Part shown: positions 1 to 51,554 of the stretch, in pieces
How positions within the stretch are numbered: the first letter of the stretch is position 1
How the letters are laid out: each line of letters starts with the position of its first letter
From: Promethearchaeia archaeon
GTDB lineage: Archaea; Asgardarchaeota; Lokiarchaeia; Sigyniarchaeales; SOKP01
NCBI GenBank assembly: GCA_029856145.1
Contig: JAHQWK010000024.1
Span: forward strand, 32,001-96,000
Length of the DNA: 64,000 nt
Direction of reading: 5' to 3'
Made by a program: the position numbers and the translations under genes
Notes under the pieces: generated by a model
Seen by the model: the letters and a program-made list of their open reading frames with translations, nothing else
Database searches by the model: none
Told to the model about the DNA's origin: nothing

Positions 1-3000
1 GAGCCGCTTCATTATATTTTTCTTCTTTAGCTGCTATTCTGGCTTCCTTTTCAAGGGTTTTCATTTTTGTCTTAAGATCTTCGATTTTAGTCAAACGTAT
101 AAAATCATCGAATTCATGAGATTCTTTTACTAGTTCCCAATTTGAAGCAATTTTTAAAGCATTTTGGAAGATTTTAATAGATTTATCGTAATCTTTCTCT
201 TTTCTTGCTACTATTCCATTCTTTTTTAAGTTTTTAATTTCTTTTTTGGCTCCTTTTATAGATTCAATTACAGCAGCTCCAGCTTTAGCCTCAATAGGAG
301 CAGAGATAATTTCATGCCGTTCAGATAAACTTACAAAATATGCTTCCCTTTCAGCGGGTCCCATTTGAGCAAGGTCATTAACTAATTTTTGCTTTTCTTC
401 TGGCGATAAACTGACTAATTGAGAAACTTTCTGATTAATTAAGTTCAATTCTTGTTGAGAAATAGGCTTAGCTTCAATGGCTGATATCTCAAGTGGCATT
501 AATATTTTTTTATCTCTCAATTCTTTGATTCCCATGAAAATTTCTGCTGTATCTTTACCAGTCTTTTCAGTAGCATCTTTTAATAATGTGGCAATAAAAA
601 AGAAATTTCTTTCTGAATCTTTCATTAAGTTTTTTGCGATTTTTAATACATCTCTAGATTGGGGTATCTTTAAAGCTTTAGCAGTAGAAAATTCATAGGT
701 TATCTCATGAGGCAAAATAATTGAAGTACTTAGTATCTCATCTACAATAGTTCCGGCTCCTCTAAATATATTTAGCTGGCCTCTCCAATTAGGAAGGTCA
801 TTACCATAAGCTCTCTCAAAACTATGTATGAATTCCATCAAATTTCTACGTAAAATCATTGAAGCTTTTTTACCTAATACTAAAGCAACTCTTATATATT
901 CTCCATCTGACAAAAGCAGCATTTTATCTCCATATGATATTTCATTTAATTCTTCTTGGCTCACTAAATCTTTACCAAAGCTACTTATGGCAGAAATAAA
1001 CCCTGAAATTAATTCAGGATCAATTTGATCAGAACCAAACGATTTAAAATAGACACAAGTCCCCGTTCCTTTATAGAGAACTAATATATGTTCCAAATTA
1101 ATTGCATCATCAAAAATAGTTTTTACTTCTGTAAGAACACGAGATTTTTCCCGTTTTTTAGGAACTACAACACCTCTATAGATCGCAACTGAGCTTGCTA
1201 TAGCAACAGCAGCAACTCCAATGATAATAAGATATGGAAGCAAATCTTCAAAAGTTAAACCAGAAGATGGAGCATGTACTATAATATTATAGACATTTTT
1301 TGTGTCTCCTTCATGATAATACCTACTTTGTACTTCTATAGTCAATGTTATATTTCTAATAGTATTACTGGTTAAAATTTCAAATTCAACTTCGCCTGTA
1401 CTATTTGTAGGAGTCCATATGGTTGTTGTGCCCGGGGTTCCATCGAAAATAGGTGTGATTCTTACATTTGATCCGCTAGCAATTATCCAATCAGACCCAT
1501 TGTTATATTTTACTTGCAGGATTATATGAAATGAATCTCCTGCAGTAATTTGAGTTGGTTTATCCACTACAGAGATATTGATTATATATAGGGCCCTTAA
1601 TGTCAAATTGAAACTTAATATTGAAGTCTCAAAATCAGTTATAAATACTTTAACAGATATTTCATAGGTTCCCAGTGCGGTAATATCTGAAGTATCTATA
1701 GTTCCTTGATATGAATTTGTAGCATTATTCAAAGAATTGCCAATGTTACCTTCATTTGTGGGATTCCCAATTTCAACATAGGTTACTAGATAAGAGTTAG
1801 CCATACCAGTAACTAAAGAATCACCATTATCATTATCTGTAATATTAAAGTCAATGTATAGATCTCTTCCAACAAAACTTGTATAAGTGTTAGCTATACC
1901 TGTGAGAGTTCCTTCTCCTCCAGGATCAGATACAGAAATAATATAAGTCTGAGTATTATTCCCTTGATAATAGAAAATTACAGGTTCCAAACTTGTGGCA
2001 TAATTAGGTTCAAATGTGACATTTATCATTAGTTGAATCCATCCAGAATTTAATGCTGTTATTGAAATATTTAATATATAATACCCATTAGTTCCATTAG
2101 GATATAACCAAATTTTTCTTGGGAGTCCTGTTTGATTATCTTTTACCGTGACATCACCTACAGGAAGACCTGTGATTGGAAGATTATTATCTGTGTCATT
2201 GAAATAGAATAAGACTGTTTGGTTTAAACCATCTTTCTTTATAAGATAAGGTTCAGAATCAATAATCTCAAGATCAGTTTGGGATAATATAATTGTTAGA
2301 TAAACTGTGATATTTTTTGTTTCTTTCCCCGTTGCAATAACATTGAAAATAGATTTATATGGTAAAGCCGATGCCTGAACATTGCTTGTATCCAGTTGAA
2401 TTGTATAATTTCCTGGTTCTCCTACATTTTCAGTTATCGAGGATCCTGGTAGAAATGATGGATTTAATTGCAAAATAGCAGGAGTAGCTCCTATAATGGG
2501 TGTTCCTAATACATCTGAATAATTAAATTCATATTGTACAATTGTACCTCTTATTATATCACCAAAATCTTTTGTATCTGATGGAGCTATAGAAGTATAC
2601 TGTCTTAAATGGAATGAAAATTCTGTAGAGTCACTGTTGTAATTTGTTTTGGAAGCATCTATTCCGATATAATTCATTCTATAGTTATAATCGCTTGAAT
2701 TTATCTGAATTTGATAATATCCATTACCTTCATCAACAATAGGAGGTATAAATGTAGTATTTACAATAATCGTAGCTCCAGGAATACCTTGGTCTCCTGA
2801 ATTCAAACCAGTGTCATTATAAAATACTCTAATATTAAAAATATCATCAGGAAAATGATCTTCACCGATAGGAGGTGAAATTAAGACTAAATCTGTTACC
2901 GCCATGATAGTCAAATCTTTTTCTAAAAATCCTCCTGCAGTTTCATTATGCCACCATATTTGAACTTTAAATATTCCATATTCACTAGCAGTATCAGATA

Positions 3001-4546
3001 TAGTCCAACTTCCTAATGTTAGTTCTGAGTCCGGAGTTATTAAATCATCGTAATATGAATGATTATCATAATAACCCGGGGCAGGACTATAAACAGTTAA
3101 ATTAATAGCGCCATCGGAAATGATTTCTGAGAAATTCGCAAGAAAATTTACAGTATCGGTAAAATCAACTGTTATTAAATCATCTATGCCTACAACTGTA
3201 TGGATTTTTTTTAATAGATTTTTAGATTGAGCAGTAATATACCAATTAATCCCATTTTCTGCTTTAGAGATTTGAAGATCCAGATATCCTTTATTGATAG
3301 GGCCTAAACTAATATCACTAGTTTTATCCTGTGAAGGACCATTAAATGCTGTAAAATTTTCCCATATTCGAGGAACTGTGAAATTGATTCTGTAATTATC
3401 AAAATTTGTGTCAAAAAATGTTAATCCTCCACTTCTGGTAACATTCCAGTCAAGTGATTGACCGCTCCCTGAAATAGTAAAATCTGATGTGGCTTTTAAG
3501 TCTGTTTTAGTAAAATTGATTTGAACTTCTGAAACATTACATGAAACATCCCACCAATCAGCTGAAATTTCAAACTCTAGTGATCCACTAGGATCAAATA
3601 ATTCATTTGGAGTTGTCCAATACCCAGACCCCAGGCCAACATCAGTCACATCAGTATTGTTAATTTCAAGATTTATATCTGAAGGTCTTGCATCATTATT
3701 TTCAGGACTTAAGCCAAGCAATAACGACATATCCGCATTAACTTCAGGAGCCCCACCAGTTTGTCTCCAAACAATACTATTATATGTCCCATCGGTACCA
3801 TGATGCCAATAACCATTATTTGAACTTAAACAAGAAACTCTAATAAAAAATGTATTGCTGTAGGTGTTTGTAACATCAAGTTTCTGATGCCAACCCGTAA
3901 AATTTACCCAATATGCATTACCCGCAGCGATAAATGTGCTTAAAAAAGCTGCTCCTGTTATATCTTGGTCAAATTTAATATTTCCTCCTGTAAAAGTTGC
4001 ATTATAAATATCTACAAAAAAAGTATCACCTCCAATAGTTTGACTCAGATAAACTGAAATATTTTCTACATATCCATCACCTGGGACTTCAAACGAAGTA
4101 TAATAAGCTTCACTTAAGTGTTTAGTACTTGAGATTTCATCTTCAATTAATAATGTTTTATTTGGAGCGTAGATTCCTTCAATATCAATATTTATATATG
4201 AACTATTAAAACCAACGACTGTTGGTGAAGGCTCATAGAATGTATTTGCATTATCTAAATTTGGAAATTCAATATTTGTTGTGTTTAATAAAGCTTGATG
4301 TAAAGAAATATTGATATTTTCGCCATCTTTTCCAAATGAGGAAGAATAATCTGCCAATAAAGGAATATTTTCATTATCGAAAGGTATATCAGTATCTTTA
4401 TTGTTTTCAGAATCTCTTGTTAATTGATTTTGACTTAAGTTAATATAGTTTAAATTAATGGTTGTAACAACTGTTGTAAGTATTAGTAAGAAAAGGATAA
4501 GAAGACGTTTTGTTTTTGTAATTTTTAAATAGCTCATGATTGTCAT
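1..4546 (-). CDS. Large (>1500 aa) single-pass surface protein: signal peptide, beta-rich Ig-like ectodomain, TM helix, cytoplasmic longin-like domain and helical repeats; 3' end runs off the window
   Basis: Hand-translated segments from ATG 4546 (or 4537) stay in one frame down to base 2; probably missing from the ORF track because it has no stop in the window. N-term KTKRLLILFLLILTTVV; many N-x-S/T sequons; TM LLPYLIIIGVAAVAIASSVAIY followed by RGVVVPKKRE; then LEHILVLYKGTGTCVYFKSFGSDQIDPELISGFISAISSF. Confidence 0.85.
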   Translation of the reverse strand, partial: MTIMSYLKITKTKRLLILFLLILTTVVTTINLNYINLSQNQLTRDSENNKDTDIPFDNENIPLLADYSSSFGKDGENINISLHQALLNTTNIEFPNLDNANTFYEPSPTVVGFNSSYINIDIEGIYAPNKTLLIEDEISSTKHLSEAYYTSFEVPGDGYVENISVYLSQTIGGDTFFVDIYNATFTGGNIKFDQDITGAAFLSTFIAAGNAYWVNFTGWHQKLDVTNTYSNTFFIRVSCLSSNNGYWHHGTDGTYNSIVWRQTGGAPEVNADMSLLLGLSPENNDARPSDINLEINNTDVTDVGLGSGYWTTPNELFDPSGSLEFEISADWWDVSCNVSEVQINFTKTDLKATSDFTISGSGQSLDWNVTRSGGLTFFDTNFDNYRINFTVPRIWENFTAFNGPSQDKTSDISLGPINKGYLDLQISKAENGINWYITAQSKNLLKKIHTVVGIDDLITVDFTDTVNFLANFSEIISDGAINLTVYSPAPGYYDNHSYYDDLITPDSELTLGSWTISDTASEYGIFKVQIWWHNETAGGFLEKDLTIMAVTDLVLISPPIGEDHFPDDIFNIRVFYNDTGLNSGDQGIPGATIIVNTTFIPPIVDEGNGYYQIQINSSDYNYRMNYIGIDASKTNYNSDSTEFSFHLRQYTSIAPSDTKDFGDIIRGTIVQYEFNYSDVLGTPIIGATPAILQLNPSFLPGSSITENVGEPGNYTIQLDTSNVQASALPYKSIFNVIATGKETKNITVYLTIILSQTDLEIIDSEPYLIKKDGLNQTVLFYFNDTDNNLPITGLPVGDVTVKDNQTGLPRKIWLYPNGTNGYYILNISITALNSGWIQLMINVTFEPNYATSLEPVIFYYQGNNTQTYIISVSDPGGEGTLTGIANTYTSFVGRDLYIDFNITDNDNGDSLVTGMANSYLVTYVEIGNPTNEGNIGNSLNNATNSYQGTIDTSDITALGTYEISVKVFITDFETSILSFNLTLRALYIINISVVDKPTQITAGDSFHIILQVKYNNGSDWIIASGSNVRITPIFDGTPGTTTIWTPTNSTGEVEFEILTSNTIRNITLTIEVQSRYYHEGDTKNVYNIIVHAPSSGLTFEDLLPYLIIIGVAAVAIASSVAIYRGVVVPKKREKSRVLTEVKTIFDDAINLEHILVLYKGTGTCVYFKSFGSDQIDPELISGFISAISSFGKDLVSQEELNEISYGDKMLLLSDGEYIRVALVLGKKASMILRRNLMEFIHSFERAYGNDLPNWRGQLNIFRGAGTIVDEILSTSIILPHEITYEFSTAKALKIPQSRDVLKIAKNLMKDSERNFFFIATLLKDATEKTGKDTAEIFMGIKELRDKKILMPLEISAIEAKPISQQELNLINQKVSQLVSLSPEEKQKLVNDLAQMGPAEREAYFVSLSERHEIISAPIEAKAGAAVIESIKGAKKEIKNLKKNGIVARKEKDYDKSIKIFQNALKIASNWELVKESHEFDDFIRLTKIEDLKTKMKTLEKEARIAAKEEKYNEAA

Positions 4547-41892: not shown

Positions 41893-43413
41893 ATGGCACT
41901 GCCTTTACCTGGAACACCAATTATAATTGATATCGGATCGGCATACGTAAAAATCGGATTTGCGGGAGAACCGGGGCCAAGATTTGTGTTCCCCTGCATT
42001 ACTGGAACCGAGAAATATAAATCTGTCATGGTTGATGTAAGTGCTAGAAGCATATATGTTGGAAACGATGTATCCCGTATGCGTGGTGTCCTTAAAATCA
42101 AGCATCCCGTAAGTCGTGGCGAAATCATGGACTGGGACAGTTACTATGAAATCCTGAATTACATTTTTTATTCACTACTTAGAATTGAAGATCTTACTCA
42201 ATATCCTGTATTCTATTGTGAATCTACTTTCATGCATAGAGAAACTAAAGAGTATATTGCTCGACTTTTCTTTGAAACTCATCGGGTTAAAAGTTTGATA
42301 ATGATGCCAACACCACTGTTATCTTTATTTAGTGTTGGCTTAACAACAGGCTTAGTAATCGAATCAGGAGATGGTTTGACTTGGATTGCCCCAATAATAA
42401 ATGGAACAATAGTTCAACATGCGGTTCAGAAGCTTCCTCTTGCCGGAATTGATGTAAATCAAAACTTTAAAGGTCTTTTAATGAGGGAAGGTGTAAGTAT
42501 CGCCTCTAGTGCAGCGGATGAAATCATACAAGAAATAAAAGAGAAAAATTGTTACTTTGTTTTAGACGCGAATAAGCCCTTAAAGGCAGGAGATATGTTT
42601 AGTGTTCCAATGCCAGATGGTTCGACTATTAATGTTCCAACTTATATTCTATATCAAGCTCCGGAAGTGTTATTCAATCCTGGAATGCTAGGATATAGTA
42701 ATATTATGAATCTCCCTCAAGCAATAATTGCTAGTTTAAGAAATATTGATAGTCTTTATTGGTATGATCTTTTATCTCATATAGTTTTTTCAGGAGGGAA
42801 TCTTTCATATTCCGGCTTTCAAGAACGTTTCGAGGCGGAGTTAGATTTGGTTATTCCTCAATTAGGTTCTATTCCAAAACCTGTTACACCCCTTTCTGCT
42901 GTTAAAAGCGAATTAATCAAGCTACAAGCAGTTGAAATTTCAAAAAAGAAAGAGGATACATGCCCTAACTGTGGGGCTTTTGTGGATCTTAGCGATGGAA
43001 AAAATTTATGTTCCTCGTGTGGTGGAGTATTAATCTTACCAGAAATCAAGATTGGTGAAAAAGATGAAATTAAACAAAAAACCCAAGAGGGAAAATGCCC
43101 ACATTGTGGGAAAGATGTTTCTGATTTAGATTCACTCTTTTGTCCTTATTGTGGAAAGCCGATAGAAACTTTAGAAGCAGGTAATGTCTCGAAAGAATTA
43201 ATAGAAAAAACACCTGCACAAGAATTCTCTGAATCTATTAAATCAGCAAGTAAAATACTCAAATTTTTTGTACCTAATAATCTTCAATATGCTATTTTTA
43301 ATGGAGCTGCAATTCTCGGAAGCTTGGAATCCTTTAGAAAATTATTTATTACATACGATCAGTTTCAAGTTAATAAGGAATTATTATATAGAGATATCAG
43401 TGAAATTCTTTAA
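41893..43413 (+). CDS. Actin-related protein (Asgard ARP) with a double-zinc-ribbon insertion
   Basis: IIDIGSAYVKIGFAGE, TGLVIESGDG, IKEKNCY, PEVLFNP, SGG and NGAAILGSL are collinear with actin. Confidence 0.93.
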   Translation: MALPLPGTPIIIDIGSAYVKIGFAGEPGPRFVFPCITGTEKYKSVMVDVSARSIYVGNDVSRMRGVLKIKHPVSRGEIMDWDSYYEILNYIFYSLLRIEDLTQYPVFYCESTFMHRETKEYIARLFFETHRVKSLIMMPTPLLSLFSVGLTTGLVIESGDGLTWIAPIINGTIVQHAVQKLPLAGIDVNQNFKGLLMREGVSIASSAADEIIQEIKEKNCYFVLDANKPLKAGDMFSVPMPDGSTINVPTYILYQAPEVLFNPGMLGYSNIMNLPQAIIASLRNIDSLYWYDLLSHIVFSGGNLSYSGFQERFEAELDLVIPQLGSIPKPVTPLSAVKSELIKLQAVEISKKKEDTCPNCGAFVDLSDGKNLCSSCGGVLILPEIKIGEKDEIKQKTQEGKCPHCGKDVSDLDSLFCPYCGKPIETLEAGNVSKELIEKTPAQEFSESIKSASKILKFFVPNNLQYAIFNGAAILGSLESFRKLFITYDQFQVNKELLYRDISEIL

Positions 43414-43566: not shown

Positions 43567-44667
43567 TTGAAGCATAAATATCGGAATTTTATCATTATTA
43601 TTTTTGTATTATTTTTAACATTAAATGCAATTCCGAGTGTGTTAGGAAAAACACGGCAGTCATATTTAAAGGATTTTATATTAGATACTGAAATTGTAGG
43701 AAAAGGGTTTTCCAATGTTATTAGTGATGAAGACAATGTGAATTTTGAAGCAACAGCTTATGCTTTGAATCTTTTGAATGATTGGGGAAGAGATCCACAA
43801 GAGATTGAAGATCTTAAAAGTAAATTGGAAGATAATATTGTAGCAATGTTTGATAGTACTCATGTAAATATATATAACTTATACTATCTATTGAATTCAC
43901 TGAACATATTAGAACATACTATTGATTCAAGTTTATCAAATAGAATTTATGAATATCTAAATGAGACTGAGCAGATAAATGGTGGATTTTCTTTTTCAAA
44001 CACAACTCATTTGCCAAGCTTAACTTATACATTTTATGTTATTCAACTTTACTCATTGATAGGGCAACCGATTGCAAATATATCAATTCATAAAGATTGG
44101 GTTCTTTCTTGTAATAATACTGATGGCGGGTATGGAGGTAATCAAACATTATCATCTACATATATTGATACATGTTTTGCAGCATTTATCCTGGATGATG
44201 AAAGATTTGGAGATATTAATGATTTAGTCGATATTAACAACACATTAACTTACCTCAAATCTTTTTATGTTAATAATTCTGCAGATCTTAACAACTATGG
44301 AGGATATCTTCCTGATGAATTAGCTGGATATGCTTTATTAAGTAGTACATATTATTGTGTAAAAGCAATTTCTTTAATCAGTGGTAGTGAATTCAATAAT
44401 CAAGAAACAAGCTCATGGGTACTAGCACGCCAAAACTTCGAGGATGGTGGATTTGTAGAGAATGCTGAAGGAATCCAACAAAAAATCTCTTCAGTCATAT
44501 CTTGCTATTATGCATACAAAACTTTGGAAATATTAGGCTCTTTATCTAGTTTATCTCTTGATGTTTGGATGGTTGAGTTTAATTATCTGATTTTAGGTAT
44601 TGTATTAGGTTCGATTGGATTAATTATCGCTATAGTTGTTTTTCTTTGGAGAAGGAGAAGAATATAA
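43567..44667 (+). CDS. Secreted, C-terminally anchored prenyltransferase/squalene-cyclase-repeat alpha-barrel protein
   Basis: Signal peptide; QINGGF, NTDGGYG and QNFEDGGF repeats; C-terminal TM followed by RRRR. Confidence 0.8.
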   Translation: MKHKYRNFIIIIFVLFLTLNAIPSVLGKTRQSYLKDFILDTEIVGKGFSNVISDEDNVNFEATAYALNLLNDWGRDPQEIEDLKSKLEDNIVAMFDSTHVNIYNLYYLLNSLNILEHTIDSSLSNRIYEYLNETEQINGGFSFSNTTHLPSLTYTFYVIQLYSLIGQPIANISIHKDWVLSCNNTDGGYGGNQTLSSTYIDTCFAAFILDDERFGDINDLVDINNTLTYLKSFYVNNSADLNNYGGYLPDELAGYALLSSTYYCVKAISLISGSEFNNQETSSWVLARQNFEDGGFVENAEGIQQKISSVISCYYAYKTLEILGSLSSLSLDVWMVEFNYLILGIVLGSIGLIIAIVVFLWRRRRI

Positions 44668-45829: not shown

Positions 45830-46285
45830 ATGGCGATTCTTGAAGTAGGAATAAACATAGGTATGCGAAACTTAGTTGAGATTAAATATTATTCTTCCTC
45901 AGATGATGTCTTAGATCCAAACTTACGTGCGGGTTTTTTAACGGCACTTGAAAGTTTTACCAGCGAGGTATTCGGCGATAATATAAATGTAATCTCTCTT
46001 GCTTCCTTTAAGTTAGTATGCTTCTGTGAGATGATTACATTACCAAGTGATGATGAAACTAATAAACAGCCTTTATTATCATATGCTATAATAGAAAAAG
46101 CAACAGATGTTACAGTCGTCAAACGCCAGTTAAATCAAATCATTACTTATTTCTTGAACCGCTATCCCCTTAACGATATATTTTCAAAAAAACCTAAATA
46201 CTTCAAACAATTTGAAATTCGAATTAATGAAGTGTTAGGGGATTTAAAATTGAAAACAGAGGATAGATTTCGTTCTTTATTTTAA
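45830..46285 (+). CDS. Stand-alone longin-like domain protein
   Basis: LDPNLRAGFLTALESFTSEVF; beta-beta-alpha-beta-beta-beta-alpha-alpha pattern. Confidence 0.7.
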   Translation: MAILEVGINIGMRNLVEIKYYSSSDDVLDPNLRAGFLTALESFTSEVFGDNINVISLASFKLVCFCEMITLPSDDETNKQPLLSYAIIEKATDVTVVKRQLNQIITYFLNRYPLNDIFSKKPKYFKQFEIRINEVLGDLKLKTEDRFRSLF

Positions 46286-50585: not shown

Positions 50586-51554
50586 GTGAAAAAAATGCCT
50601 GATATAAGAATTAAGACTCCTCCATTGGATAAAGTATTCGAAAAATGGAAGCAAAGAGCAGTAAGAACGGATCGGAAAAAAATGGAAAAAGAGTTTGGGA
50701 CAAAAGGTGCTGTTTTCTCATTAGACGCAGTTAGCGCAGCTGAATATGTAAAAGAAACCACAAAAGAGGCAGCAATTTATTTTGCACTTAAAAAATCTCT
50801 TGGTCCCGCCCCAAAAGGAAAGGAAGAAAACCTTGTAACAGCCCCAAGAGTTGTTCGAGAACAATTTTATTCCTTTAAAGGAGCTGGAAAGATAAATAAA
50901 GAGGAATGGAAAGGAAATGAAATAGTTCCTCACTTTGAATCAATTCAAGCAGTTTCTTGTAAAAATTGTCGAGGAAAAGGATATATCGAAAATAAATGTA
51001 AAACCTGCAAAGGAACTGGAAAAATTGAGGAAACTTTGACAGTTCTTGTTGGTGAAGAACAGAAAAAGGAAAAGAAACCATTTTCTTATCCCTGTGCAAC
51101 TTGTTTTGGCACAGGAAATAGAACAGAACCTTGCAAAGAATGTGGAGGTTATAAAAATATGTATAAATATGAAGAACTCCCTGTACCATTTCAAACAGTG
51201 GTAACAGGAGCCCCCATCCTTCATTCAAGCGCTCAAACCAAGTATGAAAAGGAGATTGGAGAGGATCTCCATAAAATGATTGAAGACGTCGAAGGAATAA
51301 AATTTAGTGATTTCAAAGAATTAGACTCTAAAGCAGAAGCGTCATTAGGATATTGGAATAAAAATATTAAAAAAACCATTAACTCTGCTGGTAGTGATTA
51401 TAAATCTTATGAAAAAGACAAAGATGCTCAAATTACATCTCAAATTTATCTCTTTCCTATGATTTTGATGAATGCTGAAACGAAACGTGGTAAAAAATTT
51501 GAAATTTATAGTCTTGGATCAGGAGAAAAATTTATGGTATATTCTAACTTCTAA
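50586..51554 (+). CDS. SSUH2-like protein with DnaJ-type CxxCxGxG zinc fingers (no J domain)
   Basis: VPH followed by CKNCRGKG, CKTCKGTG, CATCFGTG, CKECGG; C-terminal GKKFEIYSLG. Confidence 0.75.
   Translation: MKKMPDIRIKTPPLDKVFEKWKQRAVRTDRKKMEKEFGTKGAVFSLDAVSAAEYVKETTKEAAIYFALKKSLGPAPKGKEENLVTAPRVVREQFYSFKGAGKINKEEWKGNEIVPHFESIQAVSCKNCRGKGYIENKCKTCKGTGKIEETLTVLVGEEQKKEKKPFSYPCATCFGTGNRTEPCKECGGYKNMYKYEELPVPFQTVVTGAPILHSSAQTKYEKEIGEDLHKMIEDVEGIKFSDFKELDSKAEASLGYWNKNIKKTINSAGSDYKSYEKDKDAQITSQIYLFPMILMNAETKRGKKFEIYSLGSGEKFMVYSNF

Follow-up and report, generated by a model that had tools for sequence, protein, structure and literature searches.

The stretch of DNA analysed here, referred to as the window, comprises 64,000 nucleotides of contig JAHQWK010000024.1 from a Promethearchaeia archaeon. 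At positions 41893–43413 of its forward strand lies an uninterrupted ORF of 506 aa encoding an actin-related protein (ARP) with a zinc-ribbon insert (Table 1). The Pfam Actin model (PF00022) matches aa 9–319 with an E-value of 6e-62 and 210 bits against a cut-off of 27, which places the protein in this family, and zinc-ribbon/DZR models match aa 356–425. In phmmer searches of the PDB, solved actins align with aa 6–325 and then again from ~454, with the Asgard actin 9wc4 as the best match (E 1e-65). An AF2 model built on a 150-sequence alignment, used in place of an earlier input of 32 close sequences only (pLDDT 50), has a pLDDT of 83. Its actin core is confident, the ribbons are moderate (~75–80) and the linkers are disordered (<50). 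Foldseek comparison of the model with actin gives a TM-score of ~0.9 (by target). Pfam, phmmer and AF2/Foldseek therefore agree with the first-pass annotation, in which the ORF was described as an actin relative carrying a double-ribbon insert. A scan for promoters and terminators stayed at chance level.

Table 1. Features of the zinc-ribbon ARP gene and its downstream neighbour. Coordinates refer to the window; frequencies are among 96 aligned orthologues unless stated otherwise.
Feature	Coordinates	Strand	Evidence
Actin core, aa 1–325, subdomains 1–4 up to the helix ending at actin 322–325	41893..42867	+	Pfam, phmmer; AF2 pLDDT mostly 85–97; Foldseek TM ~0.9
Pointed-end face kept, subdomain 2: Lokiactin-type D-loop (K41, Y42, M46 = actin 39, 40, 44) and M63-R64-G65-V66 (actin 61–64)	42010..42090	+	K39/Y40 99–100%, M44 as M/L 100%, R62-G63-V64 100%
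R75, replacing actin H73	42115..42117	+	R invariant across orthologues
T140, replacing catalytic Q137	42310..42312	+	T/S/A in 96/96 orthologues; Q in 25/25 Asgard actins
W164, replacing catalytic H161	42382..42384	+	W in 94% of own family; T/S/F/H in deeper families
W-loop degenerate (actin Y166, E167, Y169), barbed-end face	42394..42417	+	Aromatic Y166/Y169 in 0/96 vs 25/25 Asgard actins
M-P-D-G loop kept, subdomain 4 (actin 242–245), pointed-end face	42610..42621	+	P243, D244, G245 invariant
Subdomain-3 contact segment degenerate (actin 283–294: I287, D288, R290>W), barbed-end face	42739..42774	+	Hydrophobic I287 in 0/96
Insert, aa 326–453 (~128 aa), at actin loop 322–325	42868..43251	+	Starts Pro-rich, then a short helix and both ribbons on flexible linkers; tail acidic/EF
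K-[LM]-x-x-[VI] motif before ribbon 1	42919..42936	+	In 70/96; weak likeness to WH2 LKKV strand
Ribbon 1 (universal)	42961..43020	+	Four Cys invariant, 96/96; dN/dS 0.08
P-[EQ]-I-x-[IL] motif after ribbon 1	43039..43056	+	Column frequencies P 75, I 78 + L 18, I 76 + L 15 per cent
Ribbon 2	43096..43152	+	Four Cys in 89/96, gap in 7; dN/dS 0.18
Actin C-terminal part, aa 454–506 and stop	43252..43413	+	Second HMMER stretch to actin; pLDDT 81–95 over most
Downstream gene: N-terminal hydrophobic segment, prenyltransferase-type alpha/alpha toroid, C-terminal TM helix, ~5-residue basic tail	43567..44667	+	Pfam Prenyltrans E 3e-14; hydropathy

The insert had been placed at ~42844–43251 in the first-pass annotation. 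Its presence, its loop position and its end stand, but the start moves to 42868 because the residues LVIPQLG still match the end of the actin helix and loop. Both CxxC ribbons reported there are borne out, as C357/C360/C373/C376 and C402/C405/C417/C420, and are matched by Pfam models (PF13248 47 bits vs 27; DZR 33 vs a cut-off of 27.3; families PF13248, PF13240, and PF12773). The units fit CxxC-x(9–12)-CxxC and their cysteines are predicted zinc ligands. Insert length ranges from 96 to 209 aa among orthologues, and the subdomain-3 loop has 17 residues in actins vs 114–227 in zinc-ribbon ARPs. L. ossiferum, its sister species, and family f3 lack ribbon 2. Short hydrophobic motifs lie on either side of ribbon 1 order-wide, and the insert tail is acidic, often with EF. 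No WH2 domain was found in the insert by Pfam; the strand-like motif is present in 70/96 orthologues and the helix preceding it is not conserved across genera. A search of the PDB with the insert found no significant relative (best E 0.008). Judged by these features, the insert looks like a set of small binding modules on tethers. Its generic ribbon types occur on unrelated proteins in the same genome too. A search for the combined actin and DZR architecture, as suggested in the first-pass annotation, found it in all 120 matches listed of 343 homologues in total.

A chimeric assembly, which would have undone this description, can be ruled out. The same architecture recurs among the 343 homologues and at 80 genome loci from Promethearchaeota-type genomes, core and insert have equal GC (0.354 vs 0.357), and the insert is under purifying selection, with a dN/dS of 0.15 over its whole length compared to 0.05 for the core. 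The linker at aa 326–354 has a dN/dS of 0.026 among close orthologues. The gene is genuine, and the actin relative it encodes is strongly conserved among Loki-type Asgard archaea.

Within a 300-genome sample of the phylum, an orthologue is present in 89 of the 91 genomes of the host's family, and orthologues span all four families of the order (the host's, f2, f3, and f31). None was found in 199 Asgard genomes outside the order, where the best match is always an ordinary actin without the insert. A search of 1.84 billion cluster representatives likewise returned a ribbon at this position, among the best 150 matches, only in the zinc-ribbon ARP clade. The cultured species L. ossiferum and P. 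syntrophicum encode UYP44711.1 and QEE17409.1, respectively, and Ca. H. repetitus encodes MCF2140085.1. All three share the core clade, insert position, and downstream gene of the window protein, but UYP44711.1 has one ribbon where the window protein has two. The assignment of UYP44711.1 as the L. ossiferum orthologue follows from matching published primers and agrees with an exact look-up. The joint absence of the ARP and its neighbour from genomes G040 and G283 was considered as a functional clue and set aside, as the upstream HTH gene is missing too and an assembly gap is equally likely.

An actin-family phylogeny without the insert had also been proposed. A quick, midpoint-rooted tree with SH-aLRT support, built from actins and other eukaryotic actin-like sequences without Arp2/3, crenactin, and MreB, recovers the cores as a single long-branched clade (SH-aLRT 100) that includes UYP44711.1. 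This clade is separate from Lokiactin, and the protein thus falls outside the Lokiactin group. Branching within it follows the host families. The single clade on the core, together with this branching, makes one gain of the zinc-ribbon ARP in the ancestor of the Promethearchaeales (Lokiarchaeales) the simplest reading of the sequences.

Residue equivalences were taken from a HMMER alignment and an MSA, with 96 aligned orthologues and 25 Asgard actins. These give T140, W164, and R75 in place of Q137, H161, and H73, as had been read by eye in the first-pass annotation. H161 is lost in ~96% of orthologues. The catalytic set of Lokiactin, Q137, D154, and H161, is absent, with T140, E157, and W164 found instead; the residue equivalent to D154 is mostly E among orthologues. 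In addition, G15 is changed to A and D157 is variable in deeper families. The nucleotide-binding residues D11, G13, K18, G156, G158, E214, G301, and G302 are invariant, and the phosphate 1, phosphate 2, and adenosine motifs of the actin family are all present. In actin, Q137 positions the attacking water while D154 and H161 activate it, and in a Q137A variant hydrolysis is slowed but still present (10.1101/2022.03.29.486216). It is a fair inference from these residues that the zinc-ribbon ARP binds nucleotide and hydrolyses it poorly. The earlier view of a specialised, probably hydrolysis-poor ARP is therefore supported by the universal loss of Q137, the frequent loss of H161, and the retained binding residues, but these changes are not peculiar to this protein. 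None of the three Loki ARPs retains Q137, and ARP-B and most ARP-C sequences (both described below) have another residue in place of H161. As Q137 loss is common to the other two ARPs, it marks a protein as not the filament actin and indicates no special role.

Lokiactin has both longitudinal filament faces intact, whereas the zinc-ribbon ARP keeps its pointed-end face and has lost its barbed-end face. The D-loop, noted as kept in the first-pass annotation, is confirmed by alignment across the 96 orthologues. The subdomain-4 M-P-D-G loop is conserved in the other two ARP families too, and hence is partly structural. R62 and D244 are invariant, and most orthologues have lost D288 and R290, the residues with which these two would form salt bridges. 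Exceptions are the six deepest sequences, which keep D/E288 and K/R290; R290 is kept in 1% of the own family, 0% of family f2, and, as K/R, 100% of these six. Longitudinal contacts in F-actin include R62–D288, D244–R290, the I287 lock, and Y169 (PMC10019781).

This asymmetry was quantified as identity to the Asgard-actin consensus at contacts with the older vs the newer subunit, against a background of 0.34–0.41. The values are 0.51 vs 0.18 in f1 (permutation p 0.005), 0.48 vs 0.22 in f2 (p 0.013), and 0.52 vs 0.24 in the f3 group (p 0.02); a broader set gave 0.63 vs 0.38 (p 0.022), all of these p-values being rough since the sites are non-independent and the interface sets, drawn from general F-actin knowledge and one paper, were partly fixed post hoc. 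Canonical eukaryotic actins, used as a control, display the opposite pattern (older 0.31 vs newer 0.85), which indicates that default drift erodes the pointed face and not the barbed face. The lateral residues R191 and R194, expected to be in use by a terminal subunit, are changed in the zinc-ribbon ARP, and the hydrophobic cleft (F146, T151, L475, L478) is kept. Profilin and gelsolin also contact the barbed-face residues that are lost here, which provides a second possible cause for the loss. As predicted from sequence, the face pattern fits a subunit able to join the barbed end but not to be extended, and is the reverse of what a nucleating ARP would require. Of the roles of nucleator and cap offered in the first-pass annotation, the cap fits; a nucleator is unlikely because it must keep the barbed face that is lost here. 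The suggested link between filaments and partners through the zinc ribbons is hypothetical: the analyses of the insert turned up no partner, and the protein is not enriched in the Lokiactin co-IP described below.

The host genome (G000) encodes four actins, Lokiactin on contig C7 and three ARPs, and the same set is reported for L. ossiferum (PMC9834061). The zinc-ribbon ARP is 36% identical to the Lokiactin of its own genome. ARP-B (C13:33321–34442, minus strand) is of the UYP44126.1 type and is order-restricted like the zinc-ribbon ARP. It keeps Y166, Y169, V287, D288, R290, H173, and E270 and has lost M44, R62, and G268, a mirrored face pattern that does not reach significance when the residues are tested together (0.33 vs 0.39, p ~0.34). 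By its sequence ARP-B is a candidate pointed-end cap or nucleator. ARP-C (C3:107487–108683, minus strand), of the UYP47647.1 type by genome position, has diverged furthest among the actin paralogues; both its faces have degenerated, and R290 is replaced by W as in the zinc-ribbon ARP.

Several other genes were observed around these paralogues. Directly upstream of ARP-B is a gene for a 221-aa protein (C13:34568–35233, minus strand; L173:2745–3407) with an N-terminal helix, ~40 prolines, and a conserved C-terminal helix ending LKKI (WH2/VASP-like), for which Pfam gives no match. It lies upstream of ARP-B in most own-family loci checked, and a small GTPase-like gene occupies that place in L. ossiferum. 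The Lokiactin gene has a 12,736-aa ORF (C7:19248–57458, plus strand) ~800 bp away. In some genomes of the family (G055:C58, G100:C32) Lokiactin is present twice, the additional copy having diverged to 82–83% identity with that of the host.

The gene directly after that of the zinc-ribbon ARP encodes a predicted single-pass surface protein and holds this position in 96 of 103 loci, in every family and also at loci whose remaining neighbours differ. The window copy has seven N-x-S/T sequons. No Cys or His reaches 90% conservation in this protein, which means that it has no conserved zinc ligands. Close orthologues were found only in the order, with weaker homologues elsewhere. FolD (89 loci) and the HTH gene (84 loci) are also syntenic, hence the synteny partly reflects general gene-order conservation. 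Elsewhere in the window, a 151-aa protein (45830–46285, plus strand), syntenic in 76/103 loci and with a weak Fuz-type longin lead (score 0.88), is followed by a 397-aa GTPase-like gene. A 322-aa protein (50586–51554, plus strand) contains a DnaJ-type CXXCXGXG zinc finger with no J-domain match, and an ORF of at least 1515 aa (2–4546, minus strand) runs past the window start.

Published protein data are available for L. ossiferum (10.1101/2025.11.30.690169, supplement 2). The exact masses of entries 01003 (31.93 kDa) and 01004 (41.88 kDa) identify them as FolD and the surface protein, respectively, and 01005 (GNAMCCOK_01005) was taken to be the zinc-ribbon ARP because it is next in gene order to these two. 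It is detected in 16/16 proteomes, with a mean log2 value of 16.1 compared to 21.7 for Lokiactin and 21.5 for the surface protein, in a sheet that names no unit. This places it ~48-fold below Lokiactin, ranked 59th most abundant in the proteome list, and ~40-fold below the surface protein, ranked 73rd. Lokiactin transcripts in L. ossiferum are severalfold above those of the other homologues (PMC9834061). The ~48-fold lower abundance suits an end-binding over a filament-building protein. In a formaldehyde-crosslinked Lokiactin co-IP the zinc-ribbon ARP is not enriched and is not named in the text; it is absent among the rows listed, which extend to a log2 ratio of -1.06 with 841 rows beyond. 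The surface protein is not enriched there (ratio -0.02), in a dataset where membrane proteins are under-represented. The co-IP is real evidence against a stable, abundant association with Lokiactin, softened by the low stoichiometry expected of an end-binder.

The zinc-ribbon ARP shares its fold, nucleotide loops, and D-loop with Lokiactin and eukaryotic actin (PF00022; 9wc4), but differs in the replacement of Q137, H161, and H73, the degenerate barbed face, the 96–209-aa insert, and its separate clade. Arp2/3 templates a daughter filament from intact barbed faces, whereas here the barbed face is lost, with Y166, Y169, and I287 gone in 96/96 orthologues. Arp2 and Arp3 carry inserts in the same subdomain-3 loop and keep the catalytic Gln/His, but these inserts are short, at ~10–15 aa, and have no cysteines; that of the zinc-ribbon ARP is about ten times longer and contains zinc ribbons. 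In dynactin a filament is ended by Arp11, likewise of the actin fold and with a single usable face, as proposed here, but at the pointed end. Conversely, CapZ blocks barbed ends, as proposed here, but is not of the actin fold. No ARP, eukaryotic ones included, is known to cap barbed ends. The nuclear Arp4–Arp9 have the actin fold and large inserts but do not polymerise, serving as scaffolds instead. A chromatin role is described for the nuclear ARPs (PMC12050087), from which the zinc-ribbon ARP is set apart by a pointed face conserved in Lokiactin-specific form.

The clade itself has been published as one of three unnamed L. ossiferum ARPs, among which UYP44711.1 was placed with no function given (PMC9834061, Fig. 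5d,e). That paper does not mention the insert and has 0 matches for 'zinc', and database labels of clade members are automatic, reading 'zinc ribbon domain-containing protein' or 'actin-related protein'. In a literature search, with subscription-journal reviews outside its scope, neither the insert nor the face asymmetry was found to be described.

We infer Lokiactin binding, capping, and a recruiting role for the ribbons, and tentatively propose, with slightly less than even confidence, that the zinc-ribbon ARP hydrolyses nucleotide poorly, caps or terminates Lokiactin filaments at the barbed end, and uses its ribbons to recruit a partner for positioning. With nucleotide bound but poorly hydrolysed, the protein would not age and leave like a normal subunit. 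It would join the barbed end last, via its pointed face (D-loop, R62, D244) and lateral contacts to older subunits (K39/Y40, G268). Addition of the next subunit would be blocked by the loss of Y166, Y169, I287, D288, R290, H173, and E270, with the insert leaving the fold beside the barbed face. The tethered ribbon or ribbons and their flanking motifs may then contact a partner through which the capped end is positioned or regulated, perhaps at the membrane; this is the weakest step of the proposal.

The lack of enrichment in the Lokiactin co-IP could instead point to a monomeric scaffold or nucleotide sensor outside the filament, like nuclear Arp4–Arp9, with the D-loop face and ribbons binding non-Lokiactin partners, whether proteins or nucleic acid. 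The loss of Q137 in all three Loki ARPs and the generic nature of the ribbons agree with such a role. It is considered somewhat unlikely, as it leaves unexplained why the D-loop and residues 61–64 stay Lokiactin-like in all families when ARP-B, ARP-C, and eukaryotic actins drift there. A complex with ARP-B is an unlikely arrangement in which the pointed face of the zinc-ribbon ARP would sit on the ARP-B barbed face, either as a closed heterodimer or with short Lokiactin between them, as in the dynactin mini-filament. ARP-B mirrors the pattern at key residues and both ARPs have the same order-restricted distribution, but the mirroring falls short of significance as a set and the two genes are unlinked. 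Furthermore, the inferred L. ossiferum ARP-B identifier GNAMCCOK_00418 is absent among the proteome rows listed, unlike the zinc-ribbon ARP, and the near-complete genome G040 has ARP-B without the zinc-ribbon ARP, although the whole block is missing there, maybe through an assembly gap.

The conserved neighbour raises the question of a membrane anchor, in which the zinc-ribbon ARP would connect Lokiactin to the surface protein and form the inner side of an adhesion-like linkage; this would be compatible with a cap. Adjacency in nearly all loci and every family, the restriction of close surface-protein orthologues to the order, and the high abundance of this protein in L. ossiferum argue for it. 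Set against these are a cytoplasmic tail of only ~5 basic residues, the ~40-fold excess of the surface protein over the ARP, its lack of co-IP enrichment where membrane proteins are under-represented, and the synteny of FolD, and we regard the linkage as quite unlikely. An Arp2/3-like nucleator or self-polymerising second actin is very unlikely: the position of the insert in the Arp2/Arp3 loop and the largely kept nucleotide pocket are in its favour, but either version would depend on an intact barbed face, which nearly all orthologues have lost, and neither suits an abundance this far below that of Lokiactin.

What Asgard ARPs do is explicitly named as an open question in the literature (PMC7444086), and Lokiactin itself has been shown to act in crawling and in the dynamics of protrusions (PMC13716822). 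The zinc-ribbon ARP occurs in both cultured Lokiarchaeia, and its face asymmetry yields a simple prediction, namely barbed-end capping by an actin paralogue. Its restriction to one order means that it says little about the direct ancestor of eukaryotes. If the barbed-end cap proposed here is true, an Asgard lineage would have turned actin duplicates into regulators of filament ends, in parallel with eukaryotes. It is possible, if doubtful on present sequence evidence, that the Lokiarchaeales evolved an actin-fold barbed-end cap with zinc-ribbon tethers independently of eukaryotes, with ARP-B serving the other end. Duplicated actins would then control both ends of Asgard filaments, a parallel to CapZ plus Arp2/3.
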